NCBI GenBank assembly: GCA_963674755.2
Contig: CAXXVS010000003.1
Location: 1,248,001 to 1,312,000, forward strand
DNA from: Desulfobacterales bacterium
GTDB taxonomy: Bacteria; Desulfobacterota; Desulfobacteria; Desulfobacterales; UBA5852
Length of the DNA: 64,000 nt
Direction: 5' to 3'
Shown here: positions 1,724-40,711 of the stretch, one piece after another
Numbering within the stretch: position 1 is the stretch's first letter
How the letters are laid out: each line of letters opens with the position of its first letter
Program-made: the position numbers and the translations under genes
Notes under the pieces: model-generated
The model's database searches: none
What the model was told of the DNA's origin: nothing
The model's input: the letters and a program-made list of their open reading frames with translations, nothing else

Positions 1724-4700
1724 TTATTCGATGATCACGGTCGTTTCTGCTCCTGTCGCTGTTGCGGGGACATTGGCCGGAAACTCCGTAGGCATGAGGC
1801 GGCGGAACATGATGTCGCTGCCCTCCTCGCCCTCGTCCAGCCAGACGCCGTAGAAACGCTCGCCATTGGGCGTCATGCGGATCTGAACCTCCCCTTGCTC
1901 CTGGTCGCCCTTGGCCAGACGGTACCAGCCGCTGACGGTTTCGTCGGCATGATTGCCGTCGCTGTCCGGATTCACGACCCAGGTGTCCTCCACCAGGGTG
2001 TTGCCCCGATCCAGGGAGAAGCTCAGGAAAAGGTCCTCCGGAGCCTTCTCCACGTCGGGCAGGTTGGTGGAAGTGCCATAGGCCAGATAGAACACGTCCG
2101 GGTCCTGCTTGTCTTCGGCGATTCCTGTCCAAACACCGTTTACCTTGATCGTGCCGGGTACGGCCACGATCCGCGGCTCGATGACGCTGACCTTGTTGTT
2201 CTTGATCAGGGACACGTTGCGCGCGGGCTCGTAGACGCCGCCGCCTTGATACACGGTGTCGACCGTGTAGTGCTTGGTCGGCTCGGTGACATCGTTGCCC
2301 TCCGCGTCCAACTCCGCCCCGGAAACCCCTTCGGGATCGAAGAAGTAGTCGATGTGGGTGACATCGCCGTCATAATCTGGATCGGTGGTCCAGGTAGCAC
2401 CACCGTCGAAGGAACGCCGGATGTAGAAGTCATACTTGTCGTGGGCTTTGCGTGAGGCCGCCCAGTTGGGGCAGTAGGAGTAGCCCATGATGACGAAGTC
2501 GCCGCGAATCGCACCGCGATGGGCGCGCGCGTCTTCGTAGGGGTTTACGCCCGACTTCCAGGTCAGGCATTCTTCCGGCTGGATCCAGTCGCAGACTTTG
2601 ACGCCGTCACCCTTGGCGCTCTCGGAACGATCGGGATTGATCCAGGTCGTTCCGGGCATCACTGTGCTGACGTTCTGGGCGCCAGGTAGGAAGTTTGCAG
2701 GTGACCAAGGATTGCCCTTTTTGATGGTGCCGTCTTCATTTTTCACCACGCACCGGCGCATCATGATGTCGCTCGGCCGACCGGCACCTTCCTCGCCCTC
2801 TTTATAGAGGACGATCAGCACGGTGCCCGAGTTGTCCGGCTGTTTGAACGAGCCGTCCGTCTTGGTGCCACCGAAGGCGGACGCCTTGGACTGCAGGATG
2901 AACCGGGGACGGCGGGCGTTCTCGTAGGCCAGGATCGGATCACCTTTCCAATCGAGGATCTGTTGGCCGGCCAGGGGGTTGGGGATCGGTTCATAGCCGG
3001 TGATATTGCCTTCCGCATCGTAAATCGGATCTGACCCGAGATACTCCGGCTCCTGAGCATAGACGGGATTGCCGTATTCATCTGTCTCGGGCAGGTTGAG
3101 GATGGTCCCGGCGCTGACCAGGTCCGGCTGGGTGAAGTCGAAGCTGTGGTAGATGGCGTTTTTGCCGTTGTCCGGGACGGATTCATATGGGTCGTAGCCG
3201 CTGCCGTCCTGGGGCTGTTCTCCGGTTCCTGTTGTTTCCGAAGGCCCGGAACCCAAGCCTTTGGTCTCCTCATAGGCCATGATGGCCCAGGCGCTCTTGG
3301 TGCCGTCCTTCTTGGTGTAGGTCTGCAGGAAGAGGTTCGGACGCGTAGCCGAGGTGTTGCCATCCAGCAGCCGGCCGTCGGTGGCCACCGCCACGGTGCG
3401 CTCCGCGCCCTGGTAGTTGGTCTTGGTATAGAGGCCGATTCCGTCGGGTGAGATGCCATTCTCGTAGGACCAGAGATCCTGCTGCAACCACGGAAAGTTA
3501 TCCATGGTTACCTCGGTGATATAGCGGTGGGAGCCGTCTTTGGTATCGTCCGGATCGGGTTGGATGTAGGGATACGGGTCGTAGGGATAGTAAGCCTCGA
3601 TGATCTCGCCGCCTTCCTGGGTGCCGTCCTTCCAAATGCCACCCATGGCTTCGCATTCGGCGCATTTAACGGCTTCGTCCAGGCCGTAGGACACCGCGAT
3701 TACCCGGTCCCGGGGCACCACGTGATTGTAATGGCAACTCACACAGTCGCTGTTGGTAAATCCTCCCAGGTATTCGCCAGCCCCGTCATTGACCACCACC
3801 AGCGGTACCGGCGCCGCTTGGGTGGGGTTCTCACCATGGGGGTCGGTATCATAAGGCACATGGCAGTTGGTGCAATTCATGGTGGACGAGTGGTCACTCG
3901 GTACGGCCCGCAACACGGCGTAGTCAGCGCTCAGGGCATCGGGGTCGTCCGGTGTCACGATGGTGCCCCCGCCCTCGAATTTGACGCAGCGGGTCAGATT
4001 CGCGGTTTCGTAGGTAATGTCGCCCGCGCTGACCGCCGCGATGGGGTTGCCGTCGGCATCCAGCAACTCGGCGTTGTTCGTGTTGACGGCGTCGTTGTCC
4101 GAAATCCGTACCGGCAGCGACATGGGTACCAGAGCCTTGGGCCGGTTGGTCCACGCGATTTCATTGCCCTCATCGTCATATTGCACGGGATGCTCGGGAT
4201 CACCACCGGCCACGAAGTTTTCGTCGAGCTGCGCGTGATCGGCCCAGGTGATATAGCTGTACCAGATGTCGGTCTTGTGGTTGGCTGTGGCGCCACCCCA
4301 GCCAGGGCCGGGACCCTTGGCTTCACCCGGACGCAGCCCCTTGGGGTCTTCCTGCCAGGTGATGGCGAATCCGGCCCCGTCCGCGGCGCCCATGAATACC
4401 TGGTTGGCATCGCGCCGGCCGGAGGTCAGGCGTTCGGGCTTAAACCACACGATGTCGCCGACCTCCTTGTCGGCCCACCAGCCGCCCCTGTCGATTTCGG
4501 CCTGGGTGACGATGACGCCGCGGCAGGTCCAGACCGCACTGTAGGGCACCTCACCCTCTTCGGGGTAGCCCTGTTCGGTATAGTCCACTGAACGCTGAGG
4601 ACCCGAGACGCCCCAGAAATCGTCCGCTACATAAGGATCGTCGTAAGGATAGTCAGGGCCACATTTTTCATTTTCACCAGACCCTGCGCAGGTTTCGCAT

Positions 4701-6367
4701 TCATCGGGAACGCCATCGCCATCCTTATCCGGACAGGCCCGGATCGAATAGCGCGGCTTGCCGCCTTTGGCGAACTTGCTGGTCCAGGCGATCAGGATTT
4801 TATTGCCCTTGACCTGGAAGACCGGTTTCTTGCAGTAGCCATAGTAAGGCTCGCCATTGGCCAGGGTGAACGAACTGCGGTCGGCCATGCGCGAGATGTT
4901 CTTGCGTTTCCAGGTGTGGCCGTCGTCCCGGGACACAGCCGCCCAGACGTCGTGGGCGCCGGTTTCGGGGTCCGCATCGCAGAAGGTGGCGATGATCGGT
5001 TTGGCTTCGGTGGCCGTTCGGATCAAATTTCCATCTTCATCATAGTAAGGGATCGCGGGGGTCCCGGTCTCATCTGTATAATCCACTGGATCGCCGTTGG
5101 CCTTGAGAGCCGGGAACCAGACGCCCATGATGTTGAGCTTGGCCTTAGCGCTGGCCAGCTCTGGCGTGCGTGAGACGCGCTTGCGGAACATGGACGAGCT
5201 CGTGGATTTGCCCAAGTGGGCCTGGGCGTCTTCAGCTGAGACGGCCACCAGGCCAGTTTCGCTCATGGCACGGGCTTCGGTGATGGTCGCCTGGATGATG
5301 TCTTCCACCATTTCATCATCGCTGAAATTGATACTTTCCAGCCCAATGCCTGCCATGGCAGCGGTAAAGGCAGCGGCCACCGTATCGGTAATCAGGATGC
5401 CTTTTTGCGGGGTCGCATCCGCATCCAGGCTTTGGAGCAGGCGGGCCATGTTGATGACCCGCGGGTCGTCGAGGTCGCTGTTGGCGAACATGTCCAGCGG
5501 GGAGATTTTGTGGTCCACCAGGGTGCTGCCGATGGGGATGCCGCCGATGGAGAGCTCCACGGTCTCGCCCGGGAAATAGTCGAAAGCCCCGGATTCGTCA
5601 GTCAGCCCGTTGTGGGTCGGGGTCTGGAAGGTCATACCTTCCACCGGCGAGTCGATGAAGTGGGCCCGCCGCGGGTGGGCCATCTCGTAGGTGGCGAAGC
5701 CCCAATGGCTGAGGATTTTCTGTTTGAGGAAGCCGTTGACGTGGTTGTGGCGTTCGCGGTTGGCGTTGCCTTTGACAACGATGTGACGGACTTTGCCGAG
5801 ACCCGATACCAGGGCTTCGCTTTCTGGTCCCGTCGCCTCGAATTCCGGATCGACCATCCAGACATCGCGTTGGGAAAGAATTTTCCCCCTGATGCGGTCC
5901 ACAAAAACAAAAACCCCATGGACGCACAGGTTTTGCAGCCGCAGCGCCTCATAGGGCTGCCCCCAACGAAAATCCATGTCCTCTTCCAGATCGAGGACCA
6001 AGGCATACTGGCCGGCGGGCTCCTCGTATTGCACCCGGTAGGGGAAGACGTCTAGGTCGGGCGTACCGTTCGGTTTGAGGGGTACCGGATCGTTGCCCAC
6101 GTAGATGTCGAGCTTCTTGATTTTCCATTCGCCGCTGGCGTCCTGGCAGGTCAGATCTTCGGGCGTTACCCGGATTTGCAGCTTGACGCGGGTGTTCCAG
6201 ATCGCGACGCTACCGGTGGCGGGGTAGGTCAGCCAACCATCGTCGGTTAACTCGCATCGGTAGAGGTTGTTCTGCATGAGGCCGCCGGGACCTTGGTAAG
6301 CCCAACCCAAGGTCGGCAGGAGCGCGAGTAGGAGCCCTGTAATCAAACAACGATGGTGAAATTTCAT
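1724..6367 (-). CDS. Large secreted Asp-box protein, choice-of-anchor-O-like paralog 1, with two CXXCH heme c motifs
   Basis: Signal peptide MKFHHRCLITGLLLALLPTLGWA after purine-rich RBS. Asp-boxes SRDDGHTWK and RSFDGGATWT. Family block WQEDPKGLRPGEAKGPGPGWGGA..HKTDIWYSYI. CTNCH (3860-3874) and CVSCH (3731-3745). N-terminal FIDSPVEG module. Family name recalled, not searched. Confidence 0.75.
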   Translation of the reverse strand: MKFHHRCLITGLLLALLPTLGWAYQGPGGLMQNNLYRCELTDDGWLTYPATGSVAIWNTRVKLQIRVTPEDLTCQDASGEWKIKKLDIYVGNDPVPLKPNGTPDLDVFPYRVQYEEPAGQYALVLDLEEDMDFRWGQPYEALRLQNLCVHGVFVFVDRIRGKILSQRDVWMVDPEFEATGPESEALVSGLGKVRHIVVKGNANRERHNHVNGFLKQKILSHWGFATYEMAHPRRAHFIDSPVEGMTFQTPTHNGLTDESGAFDYFPGETVELSIGGIPIGSTLVDHKISPLDMFANSDLDDPRVINMARLLQSLDADATPQKGILITDTVAAAFTAAMAGIGLESINFSDDEMVEDIIQATITEARAMSETGLVAVSAEDAQAHLGKSTSSSMFRKRVSRTPELASAKAKLNIMGVWFPALKANGDPVDYTDETGTPAIPYYDEDGNLIRTATEAKPIIATFCDADPETGAHDVWAAVSRDDGHTWKRKNISRMADRSSFTLANGEPYYGYCKKPVFQVKGNKILIAWTSKFAKGGKPRYSIRACPDKDGDGVPDECETCAGSGENEKCGPDYPYDDPYVADDFWGVSGPQRSVDYTEQGYPEEGEVPYSAVWTCRGVIVTQAEIDRGGWWADKEVGDIVWFKPERLTSGRRDANQVFMGAADGAGFAITWQEDPKGLRPGEAKGPGPGWGGATANHKTDIWYSYITWADHAQLDENFVAGGDPEHPVQYDDEGNEIAWTNRPKALVPMSLPVRISDNDAVNTNNAELLDADGNPIAAVSAGDITYETANLTRCVKFEGGGTIVTPDDPDALSADYAVLRAVPSDHSSTMNCTNCHVPYDTDPHGENPTQAAPVPLVVVNDGAGEYLGGFTNSDCVSCHYNHVVPRDRVIAVSYGLDEAVKCAECEAMGGIWKDGTQEGGEIIEAYYPYDPYPYIQPDPDDTKDGSHRYITEVTMDNFPWLQQDLWSYENGISPDGIGLYTKTNYQGAERTVAVATDGRLLDGNTSATRPNLFLQTYTKKDGTKSAWAIMAYEETKGLGSGPSETTGTGEQPQDGSGYDPYESVPDNGKNAIYHSFDFTQPDLVSAGTILNLPETDEYGNPVYAQEPEYLGSDPIYDAEGNITGYEPIPNPLAGQQILDWKGDPILAYENARRPRFILQSKASAFGGTKTDGSFKQPDNSGTVLIVLYKEGEEGAGRPSDIMMRRCVVKNEDGTIKKGNPWSPANFLPGAQNVSTVMPGTTWINPDRSESAKGDGVKVCDWIQPEECLTWKSGVNPYEDARAHRGAIRGDFVIMGYSYCPNWAASRKAHDKYDFYIRRSFDGGATWTTDPDYDGDVTHIDYFFDPEGVSGAELDAEGNDVTEPTKHYTVDTVYQGGGVYEPARNVSLIKNNKVSVIEPRIVAVPGTIKVNGVWTGIAEDKQDPDVFYLAYGTSTNLPDVEKAPEDLFLSFSLDRGNTLVEDTWVVNPDSDGNHADETVSGWYRLAKGDQEQGEVQIRMTPNGERFYGVWLDEGEEGSDIMFRRLMPTEFPANVPATATGAETTVIIE

Positions 6368-6509: not shown

Positions 6510-6525
6510 AGCAATTTGAGTGCCA
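6510..6525 (-). promoter_or_regulatory. sigma54 -24/-12 promoter of paralog 1
   Basis: Minus strand TGGCAC-TCAAA-TTGCT, a perfect match to TGGCAC-N5-TTGCW. Confidence 0.85.
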
Positions 6526-8742: not shown

Positions 8743-8758
8743 TGGCACAGGATTTGTA
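8743..8758 (+). promoter_or_regulatory. sigma54 promoter of the cytochrome operon
   Basis: TGGCAC-AGGAT-TTGTA (variant -12). Confidence 0.6.
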
Positions 8759-8929: not shown

Positions 8930-9820
8930 ATGGCCAAAAAAATTCATCGACGGGAATTCCTGGCCGGCGGCCTCGGGGCCGGCGCCATGGCGCTGGGGCT
9001 GGGAATCAGACCGGCCCCCTTGCAGGCGAAGGAGTCCGAACCGGAGTCCATTCCGTTTCCGCTGCCCCCACCCGTTGTCCCGCTGGACGTCGCTGCCGTG
9101 CGCCAGACGGCCTATGATCGCTATTTTCAAGGGGGCTGCATGTACGGCGCTGCGGCGGCGCTGGTGGAAGGGCTGCGGGAGGCCTGCCGACCCGCCGCCG
9201 ACGGGAGCGACTACACGGATTGGGATCTCATCCCCACCGGCATGTTCAAATACGGCAGCGGGGGCGTGGCCGGCTGGGGGACGATCTGCGGCATCTTAAA
9301 CGGCACGGCGGCGGTATTGGCCATGGCGGACTATGGTGGCCTTATCGATCAGGTGATGGGATGGTACACGATGCAATGCTTTCCTCTGGCGGACAGCGAC
9401 GATCTAGAGACGTCCGATCGCTCCTACCGGGCCCTGGCGGATAGCGAGGTGCCGGCTCACACGGTATCCGGTTCGCCCTTGTGCCATATCTCCATTGGCA
9501 AATTTTGTGCAGCCGCCGGCATTACGCTCAAGGACGCTTCGGCGGAAGGGATGAATTATAAACAGGACCGCTGTAGCAAAGTCTGTGCGGAGACAGCGGC
9601 TCTGGCGGCCTCGCTGATCAATGCCCAGTTGGCCGAAAGCGCGGAAACCCTTTACACCACACCGGAGTCCTATGCGTCCTGCCTGACCTGCCACGGGACC
9701 ATAAAAGATCAGGTGGGCAAGATGAACTGTCATGGATGCCATTCCACCTCCGAGGTTACGCTTGTCGGGAGCGGGCATGAGCGCAATGTGACAGCACCCA
9801 AGAATCGCAAAAAGCGTTAA
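8930..9820 (+). CDS. Tat-exported C-GCAxxG-C-C / split-Soret cytochrome c family protein with C-terminal di-heme
   Basis: AGGAG RBS; twin-arginine signal IHRREFLAGG; GGCMYG, GWGTICG, LCHIS, DRCSKVC; C-terminal CLTCH and CHGCH. Confidence 0.8.
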   Translation: MAKKIHRREFLAGGLGAGAMALGLGIRPAPLQAKESEPESIPFPLPPPVVPLDVAAVRQTAYDRYFQGGCMYGAAAALVEGLREACRPAADGSDYTDWDLIPTGMFKYGSGGVAGWGTICGILNGTAAVLAMADYGGLIDQVMGWYTMQCFPLADSDDLETSDRSYRALADSEVPAHTVSGSPLCHISIGKFCAAAGITLKDASAEGMNYKQDRCSKVCAETAALAASLINAQLAESAETLYTTPESYASCLTCHGTIKDQVGKMNCHGCHSTSEVTLVGSGHERNVTAPKNRKKR

Positions 9821-9905: not shown

Positions 9906-12323
9906 ATGACACCAATAGCCGTATCAGATTATCACCAGAGACCGTCTGTGGTCGTCGGCACGGGGTTGATCCTGTTTACGATCCTGTTGGTCTGGTGCTT
10001 GCCGGCCATAGCCAAGATTCGCACCTGCGGACCGATTTACCTGCGGGATGCCGACGGGCGGGTCATCAACCCATTGACCGGGGAGAATGCGGATCAACCC
10101 TTCAGCACACGGCAGACCTGCGGCGCCTGCCATGATTACGAGCGCATTACGTCCGGCTACCATTTTCAACAGGGTTGGGATCGCATCCGGGATGATTTCT
10201 CCAAGGAAAAGCCCTGGGTGCTTTCCGACGGCATGATGGGCAAGCAGTGACCGCCCTCTTTTCGCCAGTTGGCGAAAAAGACAAACCAAGTCCCGGAAGC
10301 GATCGACCTCACCGTGTTCGAGTGGGTGACGGCCGGCAGCAATCCCCTCAAAGGCAAACCCGGCTGCGGCGGCTGCCACCCCGGCGGCGGCGGGATGGAA
10401 CGCGATCGCGACGGGCAACGCTACGACCGGCGGCTGGCAGAGCAGCCCGAACTGGCCCGAACATTGGACGGCGACTACCATCGCAGCCAATGGGACCGCA
10501 GCGGGGTGATCGAGGCGGATTGTTTTATCTGCCATCTCCCAGGGTATTACTTCAAGGAACGTATCCGTCAACTCGATCGGTTGAATTTCAAGTGGGCCAT
10601 CGTGGCCGCCACGGGCATCGGGCGGGTGACCGGTGCCGTAAAGGCCGGCGAAACGCCGGAGATTGTCTACAATCGTCGCTACTTCGACGATGACGGCCGC
10701 ATCGTCCTGGATTTGCTCTCGCCCCCGTCATCGGAGAATTGTGTGGCCTGCCATGGCATCGCCGATCTCATTAAACGCGGTTTCTCCTGGAACGAGCGCA
10801 TCAATCACGATGTCCATAATCTTCACGGTCTGGAGTGTGTCCAGTGCCACGCCGGCAACCCGGAGCATAATTTCGCCAAGGGCGATGAAAACATGTCAAC
10901 GGTGCGTGACGATCTCGACAACACCATGTTGACCTGCCGCCAATGCCACATGCAGGGGTTTATGGGGGCGCCCCGGCCGGAGCATACCGGCATCCGCCCC
11001 AACCATCTGGAAAAACTGGGCTGTGAAGTGTGCCACATCCCGGCGGTCTACCGCACGGCCGCCCGGGGGTTGTGCGTGTCCACGGGCAAAGTGGCCAATT
11101 ACCCCATGGCCGGCGCCCAGCACATCGGCGAACGGGTGCGCTGGCAGCCGGATTACCGGCGGGATGCTGACGAGGTACTGAAGCCGGTCAACGCCTTCCA
11201 GGCCAATCTCTATACCAACCGCGACGAAGACGGCCTTTATCATCCGTTGTTCGCCAGGGAGATCGCCGCTGCAGCCAAGATCATGGGCCCGCCGAAAGCC
11301 GCGCCGCAGTCCGATCAGCCCTTGATTCGGGAACCGGAGGACATCCGAGGCATGCTGTCGGCTCTGAAGACGACGCTTACCACGAATCGGCGCTTCGGCC
11401 GTGTTCGTCCGCGCTATCATTTACAGGGACGGATCTACGCCTTGGATGAAGCAGGCCGTCTCGTCGATACCCCGGACACCACCTGGGTGACGGAGGAGAA
11501 GGGGTTCAATATCAGCCACAATGTCGCCCCGACCCACGCGGCCCTGGGTGCCCAGGGGTGCGGCGACTGCCATTTGCGCAGCAGCCATGTCTTCGAGAGC
11601 TGGATTGCCCAGGAGCTGCAATCTCTGGAAACGCACGCCCCTCTGAAAATGAGCGGATTGAGCTGGCGTGGGCGTCCCCTGGCCGACTACCTCAAGGAGC
11701 TGCATGCGCACAATTGGCTGAAATACTACCTCGTTCCCGGATTGTTCACGCTGGTGTTTATCATCGTGGTCCATCGCCTTGTCGGCGGCGGCCTGCGGTC
11801 CGCATCGCTCCTGGGAACATGGACTGTCAACCTGCAGGTGGCCAGAGCTTTGCTGGTCACCTTTCAGGCGCTGGCGATCTCTTTTCTGGCGTTTTCAGGC
11901 CTGGTGTTCTTCTACAACAACATGTCGCTGTTGTTTATCTTCTTCAGCGACATGGAAACGGCCAGCCGTTTGCATGTCGCCATCGGGATCGCCTTCCTGA
12001 TATCAATAGGTCTGGTGAACGTGATTGACCGCCTTTGCGATTTTGCCCCCGGACGCCACCAATCCGGCCGCTACCTTTCCGGGCCCGTCCACCGGAAGTA
12101 TGGACGGGCGGCGGTTCCGGTTTGGCGCTCCTGGACGGACCACCTGGATACGCGCCTCATGTTCACCCTGGCGGTTTCCGGCGGCATCATGCTGTTTCGC
12201 CGTCATTTGGGATTGGAAATCAAATATCTCGTTTCCGCCTGTCACGCCGCCGCTGCGGTGGCTTTCGTGGCGGCCGTTCTGGCCAAGGTCTATTATCGAT
12301 TCACCCGACGGAACACGGGCTGA
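9906..12323 (+). CDS. Octaheme c-type cytochrome with C-terminal cytochrome-b-like membrane domain; probable selenoprotein (in-frame TGA 10248-10250)
   Basis: ORFs 9906..10250 and 10269..12323 are in the same frame (GMMGKQ-TGA-PPSFRQLAKK). 8 CXXCH: CGACH, CGGCH, CFICH, CVACH, CVQCH, CRQCH, CEVCH, CGDCH. Hairpin right after TGA. Several C-terminal TM helices, two carrying His. Confidence 0.75.
10257..10281 (+). promoter_or_regulatory. Candidate bacterial SECIS element
   Basis: Stem TTTTCGCC/GGCGAAAA with loop AGTT; loop starts 16 nt after the UGA and has G in position 2. Confidence 0.65.
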
Positions 12324-13012
12324 ACACCTTCTCTCTCCTGTAGTCCCCTTGGGGACGCCATATGCCTCACTCCTTTTTTCCATACCCCCCCCCTCCATAT
12401 ATACTGAACATCATTCAGGTAGTAAAAAGTTGCCCAATTATGTCGCCTGAGGAATCATTTGACCCACAAATGCGGCATGGACGATTTTCCCCCTGACACA
12501 TGATCGCCCCTTTCCGGGATCAGCTTATAATCACGACAAAAACGTCCGTTAGAAACACCGCTGCCGATATGGTGCGATGGCCCGTTGGAAGCGATCGGCG
12601 GAAAAATCGCAACGCCGGGTGGCGGGCCGGTTACCGCTAACGCCATCCCAAGATAGGGGGAGTCAACCACTTGCATGCACCATATATAGCGCATTCAGGG
12701 CTATTCCCGGTATCCGATATGAAATTATTTTCTTATTATTAAACGGTCTTTGAGAGCCGCGTATGTCATAATAGATTGATAATATTCAAAAAAAAATGAA
12801 TTTGTCGGGATTGCATGAAATTTGCTTTCACCACAGCTACGATCACTCTCAGACAGACTTCGATCCATTATCGTTCTTGATATCGAGGGTGTTGCCAACG
12901 GCATAGGCAAACCCTGCAAATAGTGTTGATCCATTTAATTCGGTTTAGAGCTTGGCGATGTTCTCCTTGTAGCGCGCCGCTTCCCTTGCGCGCAGACGAC
13001 AGGACGATCCTC

Positions 13013-28971: not shown

Positions 28972-28986
28972 ACGCTCTCATCGGTG

Positions 28987-29140: not shown

Positions 29141-29214
29141 TTGAAAGAACGCGGCGGCACCGATTCGATGGGCACCGTCGAGCGGATAGGGTCAAATCGA
29201 CAGAAAGGGGCAGC

Positions 29215-30615: not shown

Positions 30616-30661
30616 TCCTTAGCAGCCCTGACCGCTGTCAGGGGAGTAGGAAAAGCGCAAC

Positions 30662-31225
30662 ATGGCGTTTACGTTAACCAGAGAGCGGAAGATCATTCTG
30701 ATCGGCGGGGCGATTCTTTTGCTGCTGGGCTTGATCTACAACCTGGCGCCCACCGTCCAGGGGATGTTTGCCGAAGATGAAGCCCTGGCCCTCAAGGAAC
30801 AGAAGCTGGCGAAGTACCTGGCCAAGGTCAACGAAAAGACCGCCTACGCCCGGCAGGCCAAAGCCCTTGAAAACCGGTTGCGGCGTATCGAGACCGGCCT
30901 GCTGACGCCCAAGACGCCGGCCCTGGCTGCGGTGGATATTCAGACCATGATCCGCGACATCGCTGTACGCTACGGTGCCGAGGTCAAGACGATGCGGATT
31001 CTTTCTGCGGAATCCTCGGACGACAATGCCTATGTGGCCATTCCCGTGGAAGTGACGTTGTCCTCCGACATTCGCCAACTCGTGGAAGTCCTCTACGGGA
31101 TCGAAACTTCCAGCCGCCTGCTGCATGTGGTTGACCTGACGGCCCGTGCGGCCGGACGGCGCAGCGGCAGCACAATCCTGGCAACGATGACGGTGGAAGG
31201 CTTCATGAAGAAGCAGGACGTTTGA
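30662..31225 (+). CDS. gspM: GspM/PilO-like protein
   Basis: LTRERK plus TM, coiled coil, LYGIE; position after gspL. Confidence 0.7.
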   Translation: MAFTLTRERKIILIGGAILLLLGLIYNLAPTVQGMFAEDEALALKEQKLAKYLAKVNEKTAYARQAKALENRLRRIETGLLTPKTPALAAVDIQTMIRDIAVRYGAEVKTMRILSAESSDDNAYVAIPVEVTLSSDIRQLVEVLYGIETSSRLLHVVDLTARAAGRRSGSTILATMTVEGFMKKQDV

Positions 31226-31250
31226 CCGTTCTAAACAACCGGACGTGACA

Positions 31251-31898
31251 ATGACGGGTAATCGATGGCTCATCATACTTTTGCTGGCGGCACTGACGGT
31301 GGTCTTTACCGTTCAGGCGGTCCGGACCTGGTTGCGGCCCTTCCAGAGCTATGCGGTTGCCGAAACCGACGAGGAAACGGGCAAAACACGTTTGCCGCCC
31401 GTGGTGAAAAAACGCCAACCGCCCATGAGTGCCTACGACGTTATTGCCACCCGGAGCCTCTTCGATCAGAACCGCACCGAAGGCGAGATCGGGGTGCAGG
31501 TCGGCAACCTTAAGGACGCGGATACCAGCCGCTATGCCAAACGCATTGGATTGTTCGGTGTGATCATCAGCGACGGGGAGAAGATGGCCCTGGTCACTAA
31601 GGATATGGGCCGCCGCGGCCGCGACGATTACCTGTGGGTGCGGGTAGGGGACGAGATCGACCGACTCAAGGTGGTGGGGATCGAACGGGACCGCATTTAT
31701 CTCCAGGAGAACGGCAGCCGGTATGAAGTTCTGCTGAGCGATCAGCGGCATCCCGACAAGCGCACCAAAGAGGAGAAGCGTCAGGGGCCGACGGTGATTT
31801 CCACCACCGTCAAGACGGAGAAGGCACCGGACGCCAAACCGCAGATCCCCAAGATCCGGGTCAAGGCGCAAAAGAAGGAACCACCAGCCAGCGACTGA
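31251..31898 (+). CDS. GspC-like T2SS protein
   Basis: N-terminal TM, RSLF, LFGVI...ALV...VGDEI...VVGIERDRI (HR-domain-like); lies between gspM and gspD. Confidence 0.6.
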   Translation: MTGNRWLIILLLAALTVVFTVQAVRTWLRPFQSYAVAETDEETGKTRLPPVVKKRQPPMSAYDVIATRSLFDQNRTEGEIGVQVGNLKDADTSRYAKRIGLFGVIISDGEKMALVTKDMGRRGRDDYLWVRVGDEIDRLKVVGIERDRIYLQENGSRYEVLLSDQRHPDKRTKEEKRQGPTVISTTVKTEKAPDAKPQIPKIRVKAQKKEPPASD

Positions 31899-31960
31899 AT
31901 ATATACGGTTAGAGCGGCAGCTTCAGGCGCAATCGATAAAACGGAGGGGGGCGGCAACTC

Positions 31961-34252
31961 ATGAAACCCATATCAGGCGGCAATTCGATAAGGCTATCCG
32001 TGGTGTTTGTGATGATGATCTGGGGGCTGGGCGGGTGCGCCACCTCCACGCTGCCGGAGGGCGGCCGGAGCGGCGATCCCGCGGCCGAGGCCCCCCCCAG
32101 GGCGGCGATCCGAACTGCACAGGCAGCGCCGGCCGCCGAAGGGGAACATCATCCGATGGCCCCGATAAAGCCGGGGATTTCGGTCACGCCGAGTAGCGCC
32201 AAACAGCCTGCGGCACCACGCCTGGCAGGCCCGGTTGTTACACCGGCAAGGCCGGCAACGGAACGGATGCCGGGAAGCGCTTTAGCGGTCGGAGACAGCT
32301 ATTACCCCGGCACGCTGATTCCGGTGGCGAATGAGGATGCGGCCGGGTCCCAGGGCGGTGCCGTGTCATCCGGCAGCGGGAGCACGGTTGAAATCAATTT
32401 CGATAATGCCGACCTGATCGAAGTGATTCGCACCCTGGCGGATATCCTTGAGATCCAATACATCCTGGATCCCGGTGTGCAGGGCAGCGTTACGATTCAC
32501 ACCGCCGGCGGGATGGCACGCGAGAATCTGTTGCCCCTCTTTTTTAAAATCCTTGAGGTCAACGGGCTTACCGCCGTGAAGGACGGGCCGCTGTTCCGCA
32601 TCACGCCCACCACCGACGCCTCGCGATTGCCGATCATGTTCGGTCGCGGCGGCGGGATGGGCGAACACGTACCGCCCGGCGAAAGGATCATGATCCAGAT
32701 TATCCCCTTGAAGCATATTTCGGCCGGCGAAATGAGCAAACTGCTGGTGCCGTTCACCTCCGAGGGCGCTACGATCGTTGCCCACGAGGCCACCAATACG
32801 CTGGTGGTGGTGGACAAGGGCGACAATATCCTCAAGGTTCTCAAAATGGCGGCGGCGTTTGACATCGGGCTGTTCGAGCGGCTGGAGCACCGCTTTTATC
32901 TTCTGGACAATGCCTCGGCCACGGAAACCGCCCCCATGTTGCAGGAGATATTCGCCGTAAACGGGAAAAAAGGGACGGTGCGCTTTATCCCCATCGAACG
33001 TCTCAATGCGATCCTGGCCCTGAGCGCCGACCCGCAGGTCTTCGTCAAGGCCGATCAGCTCATGATTCAACTGGATGCGCCGGGAGGGGGAACCGAACCG
33101 CAGATTTACGTCTATTTCGTGAAAAACGGCGGGGCTGAAGAACTCGCCGGATTGCTCAATTCCGTATTCGGCAACAAGGTCGCTCAAAGCCGCATGGCCG
33201 TTCAAGACGCAAAATACCGCTTTTCACGCAATCCCTTCGCCGTGCAGCCCACACCGCCGGTGGTGGTGGAAGAGATCCCGCCGGCCACCACACCGGCCGC
33301 TGCACCGGAGGCATCGGCAGACACCTCCCTCGCCGCCACACCGCGGGGCACGATTACCATTGTTCCAGACCTGGTACGCAATGCGCTGCTCGTGGAATGC
33401 GCTCCCATGGATTATCGCGTCATTTCGGGCATCCTGGACCGGATCGACGTCCTGCCCCGCCAGGTGTTGATCGAGGCCGTGATCGCGGAAATCTCTTTGG
33501 GCGACCGCTTCGAGCTGGGGGTGGAGTGGGAGTACACCCGGGAGCGTGCAAGCAATAAAACCGGTCTCTTGAGCGGTACCATCAACGGCGACGGGCTGAG
33601 TTATGCCATCGCCTTCTCCCAGGATCTGCTCCACAACCTGGATACCCTGGCGTCGAAGAACAAAGTGAACATTCTCTCCTCGCCGCACGTGCTGGCTTCC
33701 GACGGCAAGGAGGCCAAAATAGACGTATCCAACGAAGTGCCCATCATCAGCTCCGAAACCGTGATTTCGAGTTCCGCCGAGCCGCTGGTGACCACCGACA
33801 TCCAGTACCGGGATACGGGTGTGCTGCTGGCGGTGACGCCCCACATCAACGAAAACGGCCTGGTAACGATGGATGTCTACCAGGAAACGAGCGAGCAGGG
33901 CGAAGACGTCAATGTGGCCGGGGCAAATTATCCCTCCTTTTTTAAGCGCTCGGTGGATACCACCCTCACCGTGGGAAACGACCAGACCATCGTGCTGGGT
34001 GGGTTGATCCGCGAAAACAAAAATTCGGGACGCAGCGGGGTGCCCGGCCTGATCGACATCCCCGGTCTGGGCTGGCTCTTCGGCGACCGCAGCACGACCC
34101 AGGACAAAGCGGAACTGATCATCCTGCTCACCCCGCGCGTGATCACCTCCCTGGACGAAGTCCGGGCGGTCACCGAGGAATTCGAAAAGAAGGTCGTCGA
34201 GACCATCCAGTACATCCGAAGCAAACAGCCGGCCGATTACTACAACCCCTGA
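31961..34252 (+). CDS. gspD: Type II secretion secretin GspD
   Basis: Lipobox-like LGGC; INFDNADL; QVLIEAVIAEI; GVLLAVTPHIN; LGGLI; ELIILLTPRVI. Confidence 0.92.
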   Translation: MKPISGGNSIRLSVVFVMMIWGLGGCATSTLPEGGRSGDPAAEAPPRAAIRTAQAAPAAEGEHHPMAPIKPGISVTPSSAKQPAAPRLAGPVVTPARPATERMPGSALAVGDSYYPGTLIPVANEDAAGSQGGAVSSGSGSTVEINFDNADLIEVIRTLADILEIQYILDPGVQGSVTIHTAGGMARENLLPLFFKILEVNGLTAVKDGPLFRITPTTDASRLPIMFGRGGGMGEHVPPGERIMIQIIPLKHISAGEMSKLLVPFTSEGATIVAHEATNTLVVVDKGDNILKVLKMAAAFDIGLFERLEHRFYLLDNASATETAPMLQEIFAVNGKKGTVRFIPIERLNAILALSADPQVFVKADQLMIQLDAPGGGTEPQIYVYFVKNGGAEELAGLLNSVFGNKVAQSRMAVQDAKYRFSRNPFAVQPTPPVVVEEIPPATTPAAAPEASADTSLAATPRGTITIVPDLVRNALLVECAPMDYRVISGILDRIDVLPRQVLIEAVIAEISLGDRFELGVEWEYTRERASNKTGLLSGTINGDGLSYAIAFSQDLLHNLDTLASKNKVNILSSPHVLASDGKEAKIDVSNEVPIISSETVISSSAEPLVTTDIQYRDTGVLLAVTPHINENGLVTMDVYQETSEQGEDVNVAGANYPSFFKRSVDTTLTVGNDQTIVLGGLIRENKNSGRSGVPGLIDIPGLGWLFGDRSTTQDKAELIILLTPRVITSLDEVRAVTEEFEKKVVETIQYIRSKQPADYYNP

Positions 34253-34361: not shown

Positions 34362-35452
34362 AGGGGACGTTCTTTCTTATTTACCTTGTTATACCCATAC
34401 CGTCATGCTATCTTTCCAGTATGCCACGCCAATCACGCATAGATGCTCCGGGCGCTGTCCATCACATCATCGTCCGCGGTATTGCCCACCGTGCGATCTT
34501 TCGGGATGATTACGATCGCCACACATTTCTTGCGAGGTTAGGAACGTTGCTTATCGAAACGGAAACCCCTTGCTTCGCGTGGGCCCTGATGTCCAATCAC
34601 TTTCACCTGCTGCTGCGAACAGGCTGTGTTCCTATCGCGAGCCTGATGCGGCGGTTGCTCACTGGCCATGCGGTGCGTTTCAACCGCCGTCATAACCGTT
34701 ATGGGCATCTGTTTCAGAATCGTTACAAATCGATTCTATGCCAGGAAGAAACGTATTTGCTGGAGTTGGTGCGCTATATCCACCTGAACCCTCTTCGCGC
34801 AGGATTGGCAAAGGATATGGGCGCTTTGGATGACTATCCATACAGCGGTCACAGTGTACTTGTGGGGCGTTATCGAAATGACTGGCAGGAAACGGACTAT
34901 ATCCTTAAGCGATTTGGCAAACGTAAAACTCAGTCCCGTAGGGCCTATAGGGCTTTTGTTGAAAAGGGGGTTGAAAGGGGCAGGCGGCCGGAACTGATCG
35001 GGGGCGGTATGATACGCAGTGCAGGCGGTTGGGAGAAGATCAAGGCGGCGCGTGCGAATAAAGTATACCTGAAAGGTGACGAAAGGATTTTAGGTGACAG
35101 TGATTTCGTTGGGACGGTTCTGGCCCAGACAAGGGAAGAGCAGGATAAACGCAACAAGTTGAAGGCTCAAGGCGTTACCGTCGATCAGGCAGCCCGGAAA
35201 GTGGCGGAACTGATGGGGATATCAGTTGAGACGGTATGGGCGGCCGGTCGATATCCCCAGGTGGTCCGGGCGCGGAGTGTGCTGTGCTATTGGGCGGTCA
35301 GAAAATTGGGAATCAGTATGACGGATATGGCCAAACGGTTGGGGATGTCGGTGCCAACGGTGAGCAAGTCTGTGCGGCGGGGGGAGGGGATAGCACGGGA
35401 GGGAGGATTTGAGTTGAAGGGGGGGTAAGTTAATAAAGAAAGAATGTCCCCT
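34362..35452. repeat. 26-bp imperfect inverted repeats bracketing the RAYT gene
   Basis: AGGGGACGTTCTTTCTTATTTACCTT (34362-34387) versus AAGTTAATAAAGAAAGAATGTCCCCT (35427-35452); 22/26 match as reverse complements. Confidence 0.7.
34421..35428 (+). mobile_element. REP-associated tyrosine transposase (RAYT, Y1 HUH) with C-terminal HTH
   Basis: MPRQSR..HHIIVRG, ALMSNHFHLL (HUH), GHLFQNRYKS, YIHLNPLRAG, YPYSG. Confidence 0.85.
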
Positions 35453-35529: not shown

Positions 35530-38500
35530 TCAACGACTTTTCTTGCCTTTGACGACCACAGTGGTGGTTGTCGTTATTGAGGTTGTAGTGTCGACGGTTG
35601 AGGTCCTGCTTTTTCCTGGTTTAGTGGGAGTAGGTGCGGGGTCGTCATCCCCGGGATCTACTGGGTCAACAACAGGATCCTCGGGTTCTTCACCTGGATC
35701 ACCGCTGTCATCGTCGACAGTGGGGACGTAATCATCGAGGAACAGAACTCGACGGAACCAGGCGTCGGCGCCGACTTCTTCGCCATCTCTATCGAAATCC
35801 CACTGGTTCCAAACTGAATAGAAGAACTGGCCACCCGGACTGCTTGTGATGGAAGCCTCTCCAGATTCATCAAACTGGCTGCCCTCAAGGGCGTCGAACT
35901 CGTTGCAGAAAAGGTATGTGCCACTATCTGTTGTTATTTCGCCGGGCAAACAGTCGGTGGTAGGTTCATCCTGCCACACCAGGTAGTCGTCACCCCAGTT
36001 AACCGCCCTGCTATAGAAAAGATCAAGCGGTTCGGCTTCACCGACTGCTACGGTAGTGTTGTCGCCTGTTTCATAGACCATGAAGAAGCGCGAAGGATCG
36101 CGGGTGTCATCGTCATAAAGCGGGGCGGTGAAGCCTTCAGGTAACGCTGTACTGACCGAGGTTTTTGTTATGCTGCGAGTGGTGGGCGAGTAGCGCGGAT
36201 CGAGGATGGTTTCCTTCGTGCCCACGAGCTGCGACAGGTTGCGAGCCTGCTCGAAGTCGCCGGCGCCATAGGTGGTGCATACCAGCTCTTCGGTGTCCGA
36301 CCCTGCCGGACCCATCCACTCGCAGGTGGTTGTGCCGTCAGCGGTCCAAGAAACGTCTTCGTCGATCCCGTCCGGACTCCAAGCCGAGGGCGTGGTCGTC
36401 CACGTCTTGCCACCGTCGAAGGAGCGGCGGGCGTAGAGGTTGTAGTTATCGTGCCCTACGGTGTTGGCCATCCAGTTAGGGGACCAGGCGTACATGGCCA
36501 GTATATAATCACCCGCCATAAAGCCGCGGTGGCCTTTGGCCACATCATAGGGATTCTCCCAAGAGGTGTCATCGAGATTGGTTAGAGTCGGATTGGTGAT
36601 GGTTTCTCCGTAATCCGGGCCAGTCTGCTCCCAGGTCAAGATTTTGGCAAGTCCATCCGTAGCTTGCGTCATGTCGAGATCGTCGAAGTATTCGCTGAAC
36701 GGAAAGGCATCCTGACAGGATGTTGCGTCAGTACAGGGGTCCCCGGTGAGGATGGTGTTCCCGGAGAGATTAATTGCTGGGTCTGCACACAAGCCTTTAA
36801 CATAGCGAGGGTTGGACCCGTCGGTGAAGGCCCAGGTTTCGCAGGCCATATTGCCGTAGTCATAAGGATTGTCAACGATGGAGTTGAATTCGTCCGGGAT
36901 CACGAAGCGCCGGCCCATGATGTCGGCCGGGCCGCCGCGCCGGATGATACCCTGCTTCCAGAGTTGGAGGGCCACCGTACCGGTTGTTCCGGCGTCGTAC
37001 CAGTCCTGGGTGATGGGACTCGGTCGTCGGGCTATCTCGGTCTGATATAGTATAGAGGCCGTATCCTCCTGGCCGGTCAAGGTTTCGTAGATCGGATCGG
37101 GGTCGATCTGGTAAAAGTTGTACCCACCAAGCGAAGTATCCTGGAATAGCACCCCTAATGGGTCAGTAAAGTCCTCTGGATAAACTGCGGGTTGATTAAG
37201 CATCAACCCCTGGGAAACTACCTCAGGATTGAACATGTCGAAGGTGTGGTACCAGACGTTTTTACCCATATCAATTTTTTCTAGTGGATCAGTGGATAGA
37301 ATAGCTTCTTCGCCGTCTTCTCCCAAACCTTTGTTCTCCTCATAGGCCATGGAGAACCAGGCGCTGTCGATAGAGTCGTAGAAATCTGTGTTGTCTTCAC
37401 CCGAAACGAATGCCACCGTCGTTGAGTAGCCATGCAGGCCGAGTCGGGCACGGGTAGAAGCCGTGTTCCCTCGCATTAGGCGACCATCTTCGGTCACGCA
37501 CATGTTGAGGCCTTGAGTTGGCCCTTCGGGAGTTACGATCGTAACTTCAACCGTGCTCGCACAATAGTCAGGAGTACCGTTGCCATCAAAGTCAATATGG
37601 CAGAAGGGAGCCGTGGAGGTGTCTGTACACATCGCATTGTCGGTCAGGCGCACCGGGATGGACATCGGGATTGCGGCTTGGGGAGTACCATTGGCATTGT
37701 CAGCTACCCAAGTGGTAAGATCCCCGGCTTCGTCGGATAAAGATCCGTAGCCCTCATCCCCGATGACCAAGTCGAAATCGTCCCAGTCGATGTAAGAGTA
37801 CCAGGTGTCGGTCTGGTGGTGAGCGATGGCGCCGCTCCAGCCCTCGCCAGGTCCTTCACCCTCGCCGGGCCGGATCCCTTCTGGATCTTCCTGCCAGGTG
37901 ACCACGCAGCCGGCCCCTTTGACGCAGACCGCCTCGGGCCGGTTCGCGTCCCGGACAGCGGAGCTGAGGCGTTCGGCCTTGAACCAGACAAAGGTGCTGC
38001 TTTCGCCTTCTGCGGCAGGCGGCAAGATTACGCCGCGTGCCACCCAGACGGCGGCGTAGGGCAGTTCACCAACTAGCGGATAGCCCTCATCGGCAAGATC
38101 GGAGGATCCTTGGGATCCTGCCACACCGAAGTGGTCCTCGAGATAGAGGCAGGGTGTGTCGATCAGGTTTTCGTCCGTGCAGGCTTCCACATCGAGGCCC
38201 AGGTACTCTGCTACTACTCCCCGCTCATCGTTGGTCATGGCGTAGTTGGGATTGCCACCCCGGGCGTAGCGGCTCACCCAGACCATTAATACCTTGTTGC
38301 CATCCGAGGCGGCAAAGGTGCGGCCGACATCGCCAGGGTACGGGACCTTCATTTTCCCATCTTTTATTTTGAATGACGACAGATCCGCTGACTTGGACAG
38401 ATTGGTGCGCTTCCAGGAGGCACCGTCGTCCAGGCTCACCGCACCGTAGGCGTCGCGTTTACCATGGCCGGGGAAGCCGCCGTAGCCTTCTTCTTCGATT

Positions 38501-38796
38501 CCCTCGACATGGCCGTCAGTGTAGAGTGTGATCAGGGGGCGGGCATAGAGCCGATTCTCAGGTTGCTGCTCTGTAGACCCGTCAACTAATGGATATTCGA
38601 TCCCCTCTTCTCCCAGCAGTGTTCCGTCGGACGTCTGTGCCGGAACATAAAGCGGCAGCATACGTAGGGCCGCATGCTCAGTTTCTAGTTCCGGTGTTTT
38701 CGAGACGTTTTTGCGGAACATTTCGCCGTCGTCGGACCAGGCCGTGGCTGCCAGCATGAGTGCCAGGATGATTGTCAAATAGCGTAAGTAACGCAT
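35530..38796 (-). CDS. Large secreted Asp-box protein, choice-of-anchor-O-like paralog 3 (no heme motifs)
   Basis: Signal MRYLRYLTIILALMLAATAWS; SLDDGASWKRTNLS; WQEDPEGIRPGEGEGPGEGWSGA; RRSFDGGKTWT; Pro/Thr-rich then basic C-terminus. Confidence 0.78.
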   Translation of the reverse strand: MRYLRYLTIILALMLAATAWSDDGEMFRKNVSKTPELETEHAALRMLPLYVPAQTSDGTLLGEEGIEYPLVDGSTEQQPENRLYARPLITLYTDGHVEGIEEEGYGGFPGHGKRDAYGAVSLDDGASWKRTNLSKSADLSSFKIKDGKMKVPYPGDVGRTFAASDGNKVLMVWVSRYARGGNPNYAMTNDERGVVAEYLGLDVEACTDENLIDTPCLYLEDHFGVAGSQGSSDLADEGYPLVGELPYAAVWVARGVILPPAAEGESSTFVWFKAERLSSAVRDANRPEAVCVKGAGCVVTWQEDPEGIRPGEGEGPGEGWSGAIAHHQTDTWYSYIDWDDFDLVIGDEGYGSLSDEAGDLTTWVADNANGTPQAAIPMSIPVRLTDNAMCTDTSTAPFCHIDFDGNGTPDYCASTVEVTIVTPEGPTQGLNMCVTEDGRLMRGNTASTRARLGLHGYSTTVAFVSGEDNTDFYDSIDSAWFSMAYEENKGLGEDGEEAILSTDPLEKIDMGKNVWYHTFDMFNPEVVSQGLMLNQPAVYPEDFTDPLGVLFQDTSLGGYNFYQIDPDPIYETLTGQEDTASILYQTEIARRPSPITQDWYDAGTTGTVALQLWKQGIIRRGGPADIMGRRFVIPDEFNSIVDNPYDYGNMACETWAFTDGSNPRYVKGLCADPAINLSGNTILTGDPCTDATSCQDAFPFSEYFDDLDMTQATDGLAKILTWEQTGPDYGETITNPTLTNLDDTSWENPYDVAKGHRGFMAGDYILAMYAWSPNWMANTVGHDNYNLYARRSFDGGKTWTTTPSAWSPDGIDEDVSWTADGTTTCEWMGPAGSDTEELVCTTYGAGDFEQARNLSQLVGTKETILDPRYSPTTRSITKTSVSTALPEGFTAPLYDDDTRDPSRFFMVYETGDNTTVAVGEAEPLDLFYSRAVNWGDDYLVWQDEPTTDCLPGEITTDSGTYLFCNEFDALEGSQFDESGEASITSSPGGQFFYSVWNQWDFDRDGEEVGADAWFRRVLFLDDYVPTVDDDSGDPGEEPEDPVVDPVDPGDDDPAPTPTKPGKSRTSTVDTTTSITTTTTVVVKGKKSR

Positions 38797-39535: not shown

Positions 39536-40711
39536 TCAGTCGCTTGGTTTTGTTCCAAGCGACTCCTCAATGACCTTTTCAGGGATGCTTCCGGGGTAGG
39601 TTTGATCGCCTATCACGTAGGTCGGTGTTCCCCTCAATTTTAATTCATGGCCGGCGGCAATGTCTTTGAGGACCGCCGATTTGGCGTCCTCACTAGCCAT
39701 GCAGGCGCGCAGCGCTTCAGGATCTATGCCGATGGCCTCGGCCAGTTCTTCGGCAGTAACCGGATTTTTACGGCGGCCATTCGCATACAGATAGTCGTTG
39801 GCCTCCCAAAAACGCTTTTGTTCGCCGGCACAGTGGGCCATGACCGCATAGACGAACGAATACCGATGGCGCTTCAAAGGATAGTTCCGGTGGACAAGTC
39901 GGATTTGGTCCGGATGCCGGCTGACCAGCGCTCTGACCTTGTGGTGACCCCGGCTGCAATAGGGGCACTGGTAGTCACTGAACTCGGTGATCTCGAGAAC
40001 CGGTTGGCGGGCGCCGATCCAGTCAAACCCCTCGGCTGTTTTGCCAACCAGCAACCCTCCGGGACCGGTCGTGATGTTGGCCTCCCAGTAAGCGGGTAGG
40101 GTGACCCACACGATTCCCAACAGCGCCATAAAGCTCGCAAGATATAAAGAAGCCGTCAGCCTTTTGCCGGAAACGGCCTTGGTGTCCATACCAAATGCCT
40201 TAAACGGCCCGCATTTCAAGCGGCGCAGATCGAGGATCGTAAGGCCCAATAGCAGGCCGTTGATGACGTAGGTGGCCATGCACAGGAGGCACAGGGAGTG
40301 GATCTCCCGGTGGGAAATGAAAAACAGGACCGCGCTTACAAGAACGGAAACAAGGCTCAGCCAGAACAAAAACCCAAGGGGCCAGGTATGGGGCGGCTGT
40401 TTCCGGCGGGCAAGCCCCCACAGGCACAGGCCGCCCATGAACAGATAGCCGACGATACCCCACAGGGCCACGGGAAGGCCGGCAATAACCGCGTAGGGGC
40501 TTAGCGCAACCGTTTCGCAATTGAATTGCTCGTTCACGGCGCAAAGGGCGTGATAGGCGGGGTCGGTGTAGACCTTCACATGCAGCCGCAGCAGTTCGGC
40601 ACTGAAGCAGGCGCCTAGGACACAGAGCACCAAGAAAAGGATGCGCCACACAGGAAGCGGCCCGGATGTATCGGTAGAATGTCGGTTGGCGCTTAGCGGA
40701 TGAGGTGTCAT
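39536..40711 (-). CDS. VKOR - DsbA/thioredoxin fusion (disulfide bond formation); start may be 40729
   Basis: VKOR CAVNEQFNCETVALSPY..GLPVA and CLLC; DsbA EFSDYQCPYC and GTPT. Confidence 0.88.
   Translation of the reverse strand: MTPHPLSANRHSTDTSGPLPVWRILFLVLCVLGACFSAELLRLHVKVYTDPAYHALCAVNEQFNCETVALSPYAVIAGLPVALWGIVGYLFMGGLCLWGLARRKQPPHTWPLGFLFWLSLVSVLVSAVLFFISHREIHSLCLLCMATYVINGLLLGLTILDLRRLKCGPFKAFGMDTKAVSGKRLTASLYLASFMALLGIVWVTLPAYWEANITTGPGGLLVGKTAEGFDWIGARQPVLEITEFSDYQCPYCSRGHHKVRALVSRHPDQIRLVHRNYPLKRHRYSFVYAVMAHCAGEQKRFWEANDYLYANGRRKNPVTAEELAEAIGIDPEALRACMASEDAKSAVLKDIAAGHELKLRGTPTYVIGDQTYPGSIPEKVIEESLGTKPSD

Follow-up and report, generated by a model that had tools for sequence, protein, structure and literature searches.

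Several described systems come close to the gene island considered here, which lies in a 64,000-nucleotide stretch of DNA (hereafter the window) from a Desulfobacterales bacterium of sulfate-reducer type (contig CAXXVS010000003.1, positions 1,248,001 to 1,312,000 of the forward strand). The island encodes three giant proteins of the "choice-of-anchor O" family (CAO1, CAO2 and CAO3), a type II secretion system (T2SS), a membrane octaheme cytochrome with a predicted selenocysteine (Sec) and a sigma-54-dependent regulator. Export of the surface cytochromes MtrC and OmcA by the T2SS of Shewanella oneidensis is established; periplasm-matured heme proteins cross the outer membrane by this route to insoluble acceptors and are fed by a quinol dehydrogenase and periplasmic cytochromes (PMC1974784). 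CbcL of Geobacter sulfurreducens unites nine c-hemes and a membrane di-heme b domain in one polypeptide, described as serving extracellular electron transfer in the role of a quinone oxidoreductase (PMC9129911). MccSep of Geobacter is described as a soluble periplasmic tetramer, a pentaheme selenoprotein polysulfide reductase with Sec in a C-terminal Ig-like domain, and illustrates that a heme-adjacent Sec can be catalytic (PMC13510729).

The island shares features with each of these systems and departs from all of them. The Shewanella route would have its counterpart in T2SS export, here read from the genes; the candidate cargo, however, consists of giant propellers with a small two-heme or rubredoxin insert rather than decaheme cytochromes, and Pfam, applied to chosen open reading frames (ORFs) of the window, found no MtrAB-type conduit encoded nearby. 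With CbcL, the family of the window octaheme shares the fusion of a multiheme c part to a PF01292/FdnI-type b domain, whereas the window protein itself has eight c-hemes instead of nine, carries Sec and has a membrane domain below Pfam detection; the likeness is one of architecture. By the description of MccSep, both are c-type multiheme cytochromes of Desulfobacterota with one UGA-encoded Sec followed by Pro and with Cys-type homologs, but the window octaheme, compared by description, has eight hemes, a membrane anchor and its Sec between hemes 1 and 2.

We propose, tentatively and at slightly less than an even chance, that the island encodes a respiratory branch under sigma-54 control, with the propellers as its extracytoplasmic redox proteins, exported by the T2SS. 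We infer an order of carriers and a direction of electron flow in which electrons would move between the quinone pool and the selenocysteine octaheme/cytochrome-b protein, which would hand them on, probably via a Tat-dependent di-heme cytochrome, to the heme- and rubredoxin-bearing propellers, which the island's own T2SS is predicted to place at the cell surface. A long propeller (clade A or C, see below) and a short one (clade B) may form a complex there. The external substrate would be solid or polymeric, elemental sulfur or polysulfide being one candidate by analogy with MccSep. Judged from sequence, a new respiratory route to a substrate outside the cell is likely.

The original prediction, made from the letters alone, described the giants as paralogs of one family, two of them with heme or rubredoxin sites, and searches with hidden Markov models bear this out. 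Against the curated cut-off of 125 bits for NCBIfam NF040591 ("choice-of-anchor O", a name that gives no function), CAO1 (1724..6367, minus strand) scores 534.3 bits, CAO2 (17260..21702, plus strand) 419.2 bits and CAO3 (35530..38796, minus strand) 692.6 bits. CAO3 matches the whole profile uninterrupted; CAO1 and CAO2 match it in two pieces flanking their inserts. These are the sole NF040591 copies in the 6.7-Mb genome, and each has a hydrophobic, signal-like N-terminus, read from the sequence with no predictor. In CAO1 an N-terminal domain of about 375 residues, with beta-sandwich and helical structure, precedes a propeller that is interrupted by roughly 190 inserted residues; the insert, located by comparison with CAO3, contains two CXXCH motifs (CTNCH and CVSCH). 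CAO2 also has two CXXCH motifs, in a neighbouring but different loop and with the halves in opposite order, together with a pair of inserted rubredoxins (PF00301, E 5e-24) that have four Cys and three Cys, respectively. CAO3 lacks CXXCH and has an acidic linker and a basic C-terminal tail. The tail of CAO2 is dockerin-like (Dockerin_1, E 0.008, below the Pfam cut-off), and a search of its own genome with PF00963 found no cohesin partner. Identity to the orthologs in a same-genus genome with the same system (G010) is 83% for CAO1, 69% for CAO3 and 87% for GspE, compared with 44% for CAO2, which by this measure evolves unusually fast.

Structure prediction, one of the checks suggested with the original prediction, gives a beta-propeller for CAO3. 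The AlphaFold2 model (pLDDT 79, pTM 0.84) aligns over residues 23-1022 to single propellers of seven to eight blades (Z 12.9), and CAO3 is accordingly modelled as one such propeller with very large loop insertions. The CAO1 N-domain, conserved across clade A, is predicted to fold as beta-sandwiches and helices and retrieved generic beta-sandwiches (best Z 7.2); neither this fold search nor that with CAO3 yielded a functional lead. By sequence, CAO1 has no relative in the PDB at E<=1 and CAO2 matched rubredoxins alone; the ESM Atlas gave clusters without a name and one weak BNR_4 entry (0.82), nothing else.

NF040591 is a large, well-conserved family with no assigned function and no solved relative. 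A protein search returned 1057 members at E<=0.001 among the candidates scored, and a scan of genome contigs found 352 stretches encoding a relative, 77 of which were fetched with their flanks; most members belong to Chloroflexota, Desulfobacterota, Pseudomonadota and Acidobacteriota. A loop with the pattern WQEDPxGxRPGxGxGPGxGW is conserved. A midpoint-rooted FastTree phylogeny of 89 sequences, each 950 residues or longer, separates clade A (CAO1-like, 16 sequences), clade B (CAO3-like, 32), clade C (CAO2-like, 4) and clade D (Chloroflexota, 37). All five clade C proteins examined (the four in the tree and the G010 ortholog) have two CXXCH motifs and at least one CPxCG knuckle, and four of the 16 in clade A have the CTNCH...C(V/T)SCH pair. 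An A or C copy is also present in 20 of 34 loci with a B copy, mostly directly upstream of it; the remaining 14 include several short contigs, and the count is meaningful only in the direction from B to A/C, since the loci were fetched with B-type queries.

The C-terminal tails of the homologs vary between PKD, Big, MopE-like, dockerin-like and PGK-plus-basic ends and, for Chloroflexota, a short tail with [YHF]LP; "choice-of-anchor" presumably refers to such a variable anchoring or sorting region. Clade D copies (for instance L059:9971-13159 and L065:9935-13108) have an Ig-like domain near the end and then a very short tail of [YHF]LP, three to five hydrophobic residues and K or R, which may be an undescribed C-terminal sorting signal. 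An exported DUF2202 (ferritin-like) protein adjoins propeller modules in Desulfoprunum (L028:19242-19979) and in G041, a relative from another family (L094:8947-9732). Among the titles listed for "choice-of-anchor" proteins none deals with family O, and those listed for Anaerolineae/Ardenticatena multiheme clusters name no propeller partner; term searches within PMC5808234 and the preprint 10.64898/2026.05.27.727921 gave no match. The heme- and rubredoxin-bearing subfamilies, the pairing of A/C with B and the cytochrome neighbourhoods were not found in the literature searched.

Evidence for the redox interpretation also comes from other genomes. In Chloroflexota the propeller comes first in a conserved string of genes, followed by an FG-GAP protein, a cytochrome b, a Rieske protein and then cytochromes with about 6, 12 and 22-35 hemes. 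Among 41 clade D loci, 30 encode a multiheme cytochrome, 31 the FG-GAP protein, 15 the cytochrome b and 11 the Rieske protein, and where at least 12 kb of DNA is available a protein with at least four hemes is present in 28 of 31. In Desulfoprunum benzoelyticum (G061), an ortholog of the window octaheme (54% identity, same TGA) lies divergently beside a module of kinase, sigma-54 regulator, clade C propeller and clade B propeller, and in a Desulfobulbaceae metagenome-assembled genome (MAG; G062) the ortholog adjoins the kinase-regulator pair at a contig end. Among the genomes searched, full-length TGA-bearing octaheme orthologs are confined to those with propellers, namely the window's own genome (G000), G010, G061 and G062. 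The ortholog is present in one of 60 relatives (G010) and, besides G061 itself, in none of 80 further genomes of the order of G061, in which two of 81 genomes have propellers; distant partial relatives occur in the propeller-free G026, G038 and G086. Three lines independent of the window thus support, at the level of sequence, a tie between the propeller family and electron transport: conserved heme and rubredoxin sites fused into subfamilies, the multiheme, cytochrome b and Rieske operons beside propellers in Chloroflexota, and the Sec octaheme beside the kinase-regulator-propeller module in D. benzoelyticum. The strongest argument for the redox interpretation is that two unrelated quinone-linked modules, one per phylum, accompany the same propeller family.

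The octaheme gene (9906..12323, plus strand) was originally predicted to encode a membrane selenocytochrome, and translation through its in-frame TGA (10248-10250, residue 115) indeed gives a signal anchor, eight CXXCH motifs and a C-terminal membrane domain. The TGA position is retained in G010 (74% identity overall), G061 and G062 (53-54%), with conservation on both sides of it; the column is Cys in the three nearest full-length homologs (P0129, P0130 and P0132), and several database entries start right after it. In the genome, selB and tRNA-Sec each have two matches above their cut-offs. These lie at C2:1902839-1904731 and C1:790172-791366, and one selB adjoins a tRNA-Sec, which suggests two selenocysteine-decoding sets. 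An 8-bp stem begins 11 nt past the UGA, with a statistically unremarkable fold z-score of only -1.09, and an Rfam scan of the window matched no family. The selenocysteine reading of the TGA is well supported. Of the seven homologs aligned, five have PF01292 above its cut-off at the C-terminus, and the profile built from the family matches E. coli FdnI (1kqf_C) with E 2.3e-13; because the family carries this FdnI-type cytochrome b domain, it is reasonable to link the octaheme to the quinone pool. An MtrC/MtrF domain match on the octaheme reaches 28.2 bits, under the cut-off of 30.

Immediately upstream, the Tat-signal di-heme c-type cytochrome (8930..9820, plus strand; RREFLAGG, CLTCH/CHGCH) resembles the split-Soret cytochrome c of Desulfovibrio in its N-terminal Cys-rich domain and two C-terminal c-hemes. 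The Tat motif, both heme motifs and the relationship (NF047622, E 4e-29) agree with the split-Soret-type protein first proposed, while its score of 101.9 bits against the equivalog cut-off of 400 makes it a split-Soret relative and not the same protein. Among 60 relatives, G010 alone has an ortholog.

The octaheme could instead be the terminal enzyme itself, a quinol-dependent membrane reductase of soluble periplasmic sulfur or selenium species, with the propellers capturing or solubilising a solid substrate. Such an enzyme would need no outer-membrane conduit, and the taxa with propellers include sulfur reducers and disproportionators (Desulfuromonadales, Desulfobulbaceae). Conserved non-motif His residues number six for eight hemes, leaving two hemes without a conserved distal His. 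A precedent exists in MccSep, a multiheme selenoprotein of Geobacter that reduces polysulfide and holds Sec in a D-G-U-P loop by a His/Cys heme (PMC13510729), to be set beside G-K-Q-U-P-P in the window protein. Compared by description, however, the two differ in architecture: eight hemes, with a membrane domain and with Sec close to the N-terminus, as opposed to five hemes and Sec in an Ig-like domain at the C-terminus. The Cys/Sec column is not conserved in the wider family (T, R or D in the more distant P0133, P0134 and P0137), and there would be no explanation for the propellers' own fused hemes and rubredoxins. We consider this alternative unlikely.

Regulatory genes and promoter elements also bear on the respiratory branch as proposed. 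The sigma-54 two-component pair of the original prediction was found by Pfam, with a qualification for one partner: the sigma-54-dependent response regulator (15104..16804, plus strand; receiver, PAS, AAA+ and Fis helix-turn-helix (HTH) domains; Sigma54_activat, E 7e-66) is preceded by a PAS sensor histidine kinase (12923..15107, plus strand; PAS, HisKA) with a frameshift in a run of nine G (14848-14856), its ATP-binding part carrying on in another frame. The G010 ortholog is one intact 732-residue frame; contigs over the kinase from two runs, X1 and X2, of one sample that is probably the source have the same G-run length as the assembly; run X3 did not cover this stretch. The same pair precedes propeller genes in G061 and G041, and in G062 the contig ends after it.

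A sigma-54 -24/-12 promoter (TGGCAC-N5-TTGCT, 6510..6525, minus strand) is predicted 143 nt upstream of CAO1; it is the only exact TGGCAC-N5-TTGCW match in the window, at least one such match occurring in 9 of 100 shuffles, and the G010 ortholog has TGGCAT-N5-TTGCT, with one mismatch, in the same relative place. A sigma-54-like element upstream of the di-heme/octaheme operon, TGGCACAGGATTTGTA (8743..8758, plus strand; -12 GT, not GC), is conserved in G010 as TGGCACAGCAATTGTA, and another upstream of CAO2, TGGCATGGAACTTGGA (17100..17115, plus strand; -12 GG), as TGGCATGGCTTTTGGA. This conservation marks CAO1, the cytochrome operon and CAO2 as co-regulated, as far as promoter sequence tells. A further candidate, TGGCACGATAGATGCT (22759..22774, plus strand), lies 232 nt upstream of gspE with one mismatch and both GG and GC kept; its G010 counterpart, TGGCACAGTAGGTGCA, is 805 nt upstream of G010 gspE. 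A relaxed pattern matches 16 times in the window, compared with 4.0 +/- 2.0 in 200 shuffles, and also picks the promoter of the ammonium transporter gene amt (44284-44299), an internal control. Elsewhere, the propeller gene of G061 has a sigma-54 element about 85 nt upstream, and a strict scan upstream of propeller genes at other loci gave few matches. A shared upstream activator site was sought as well; a single 16-mer common to the upstream regions of CAO3 and gspE was judged not significant.

The T2SS lies between the giants as originally read. Its genes, in the order gspE-F-G-H-I-J-K-L-M-C-D (23006..34252, plus strand), are each supported by Pfam or NCBIfam, GspC exactly at its 27-bit cut-off, with the exception of gspJ (~27272-27895), recognised by its prepilin motif only; the secretin GspD has a lipoprotein-type signal. 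No prepilin peptidase GspO/PilD is encoded in the window, the only sequence searched for it. The cluster sits within a 31-kb insertion, with CAO2 on one side and CAO3 on the other, and is missing at the syntenic site of G004, a same-genus genome that lacks propeller genes and serves as the reference for island boundaries. In Pelovirga (L021) and a Geobacteraceae MAG (L047), propeller pairs are followed by T2SS-like clusters with their genes in another order. The L021 secretin (L021:9868-12291) ends in a cohesin domain (PF00963, E 1e-10), and clade C propellers elsewhere have dockerin-like tails. That the T2SS is dedicated to the propellers, as first claimed, stands in part: it travels with them in the genus and adjoins pairs in two other lineages, but it is absent near most propeller loci, and an amidase is a rival cargo. 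The link between T2SS and propellers is accordingly the weaker one in the gene comparisons.

A number of observations weigh against a respiratory branch served by its own T2SS. A full T2SS-like cluster lies inside 10 kb at three of the 77 loci (L015, which is the G010 genome, L021 and L047), L022 and L048 having GspE-like ATPases only. In the window's own genome there is another GspG-type locus, a weaker one, along with five or six secretins, and G004 has a different gsp cluster, in the order F-G-H-I-J-K-L-M-C-D-E and with no propellers (L105/L106, C27 ~19-34 kb). Directly upstream of that cluster lies a penicillin-amidase paralog, 54% identical to the amidase of the window, and the latter may therefore be T2SS cargo too. 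In Desulfobacterota, unlike Chloroflexota, a protein with at least four hemes is encoded inside 10 kb of only one of 35 A/B/C-type loci. A close octaheme ortholog is absent from the propeller-bearing G041, G063, G064 and G077. Twelve of the 16 clade A proteins have no heme motif, and fold searches return generic propellers and weak sialidases only, which point to no catalytic site. The membrane domain of the window octaheme is below every Pfam threshold, DUF4405 alone matching at E 0.05. Pfam named no porin-cytochrome or other outer-membrane conduit among the chosen six-frame ORFs of the window. As for the frameshift of the sensor kinase, finally, the assembly may be in error, the sensor may be dead, or the poly-G run may act as a phase switch.

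Some of these points would fit another role for the propellers, that of secreted members of a sialidase-like propeller superfamily which degrade polymers or mediate adhesion and are exported by the T2SS with the amidase; the cytochromes would then form a separate respiratory module sharing only the island and its regulator. Two Asp-box-like motifs are present, and the best Foldseek matches to CAO3 are weak sialidases and PL24/PL25 lyases (E ~2e-6 to 4e-4). S8 and C11 proteases and CBM48-like proteins are neighbours at some loci, a cytochrome is absent near most A/B pairs, and the amidase paralog adjoins the T2SS in G004. BNR scores only 17-19 bits against a cut-off of 27. Against this role, the Foldseek matches have a query TM-score (TMq) of at most 0.2 (at most 0.15 for the sialidases, at E 2e-6). 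The best alignment of the core is to propellers of seven to eight blades, against six in sialidases, and Pfam and NCBIfam place no glycoside-hydrolase family at threshold. A role in polymer breakdown or adhesion leaves unexplained both the conserved heme and rubredoxin inserts in two different loops of the same blade region and the giant multiheme cytochromes in the gene string at 30 of 41 Chloroflexota loci. We regard it as improbable.

The boundaries of the island emerge from comparison with G004, in which a glycosidase (96% DNA identity to the flanking glycosidase of the window), LigB, a pentapeptide protein, VKOR-DsbA and amt follow one another inside 9 kb. Relative to this order the window has three extra stretches: 1585-6812 with CAO1 and its promoter, 8486-39556 from the di-heme gene through CAO3 (the 31-kb insertion), and 40834-44137 with a gene for an exported penicillin-amidase-family protein (40864..43632, minus strand; Pfam E 7e-97), absent at the syntenic G004 site. 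In the window VKOR-DsbA and this amidase gene come after CAO3. Pfam confirms the VKOR-DsbA gene, and the specific role originally given to it falls away: like LigB, it is also present in the propeller-free G004 and therefore belongs to the backbone. Propeller genes are present in two of 60 relatives, G010 (same gene order) and G041. Among 13 members of the genus, the propeller, octaheme and di-heme genes occur only in the window's own genome and in G010, and were therefore gained or lost together within the genus. The co-occurrence elsewhere on which the original prediction was staked is found both in the kept gene order of G010 and in the octaheme-kinase-regulator-propeller arrangement of G061.

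That the island has no joint function and is a patchwork of accessory genes unrelated to one another, as its three separate insertions relative to G004, its internal IS200-like gene and the rapid divergence of CAO2 (44% identity to G010, against 83% for CAO1) might suggest, is very unlikely given a gene order kept in two species, shared and conserved sigma-54 elements, and an octaheme-kinase-regulator-propeller arrangement that recurs in another order.

The remaining features of the window complete this picture of its gene content. Its G+C content is 60% and spurious ORFs are numerous; scans with Pfam and NCBIfam nevertheless gave a coherent gene list. With sequence reading they recovered every gene named in the original prediction at or near its place, confirming the observation, while the interpretation built on it is partly supported. 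The IS200-type Y1 transposase-like protein with a C-terminal HTH (34421..35428, plus strand; Y1_Tnp, E 1.7e-8) has a counterpart, 76% identical, in the same place in G010. Between that gene and CAO3, G010 has two extra genes, for a protein of about 110 residues and a clostripain-type C11 peptidase (~L093 2900-6200); the pair is missing at window 35428-35530 and recurs near clade B propellers in L051, L052, L030 and L050. The 1.3 kb from CAO2 to gspE (21703-23005) are without a convincing gene, and two minus-strand ORFs at 21775-22664, low in complexity and rich in Arg, Pro and Ala, were read as non-coding translation. On the minus strand at 47504-55455, a methylene-tetrahydrofolate reductase gene stands with HdrA-like, CCG-domain, FrhB-like and ferredoxin genes, in what has the look of an ordinary Wood-Ljungdahl-linked cluster and has no relation to the propeller system.

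Beyond the island, choice-of-anchor O propellers might be widespread, unrecognised extracytoplasmic terminal oxidoreductases wired to the quinone pool by non-homologous means, through Rieske/cytochrome b proteins and 20-35-heme cytochromes in Chloroflexota and through the Sec octaheme/cytochrome b and a dedicated T2SS in Desulfobacterota, the two together defining a new pathway for the respiration of insoluble material, for example a mineral or elemental sulfur; we hold this wider generalisation to be rather doubtful. The tie to respiratory cytochromes gives the family its first testable functional lead, and Desulfoprunum benzoelyticum DSM 28570, which is cultured and carries the core module, makes it tractable. 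After MccSep, the octaheme would add a second, membrane-bound architecture to the multiheme selenoproteins, and the system as a whole may represent a new way in which anaerobic respiration ends in sediments, sludge and soils.

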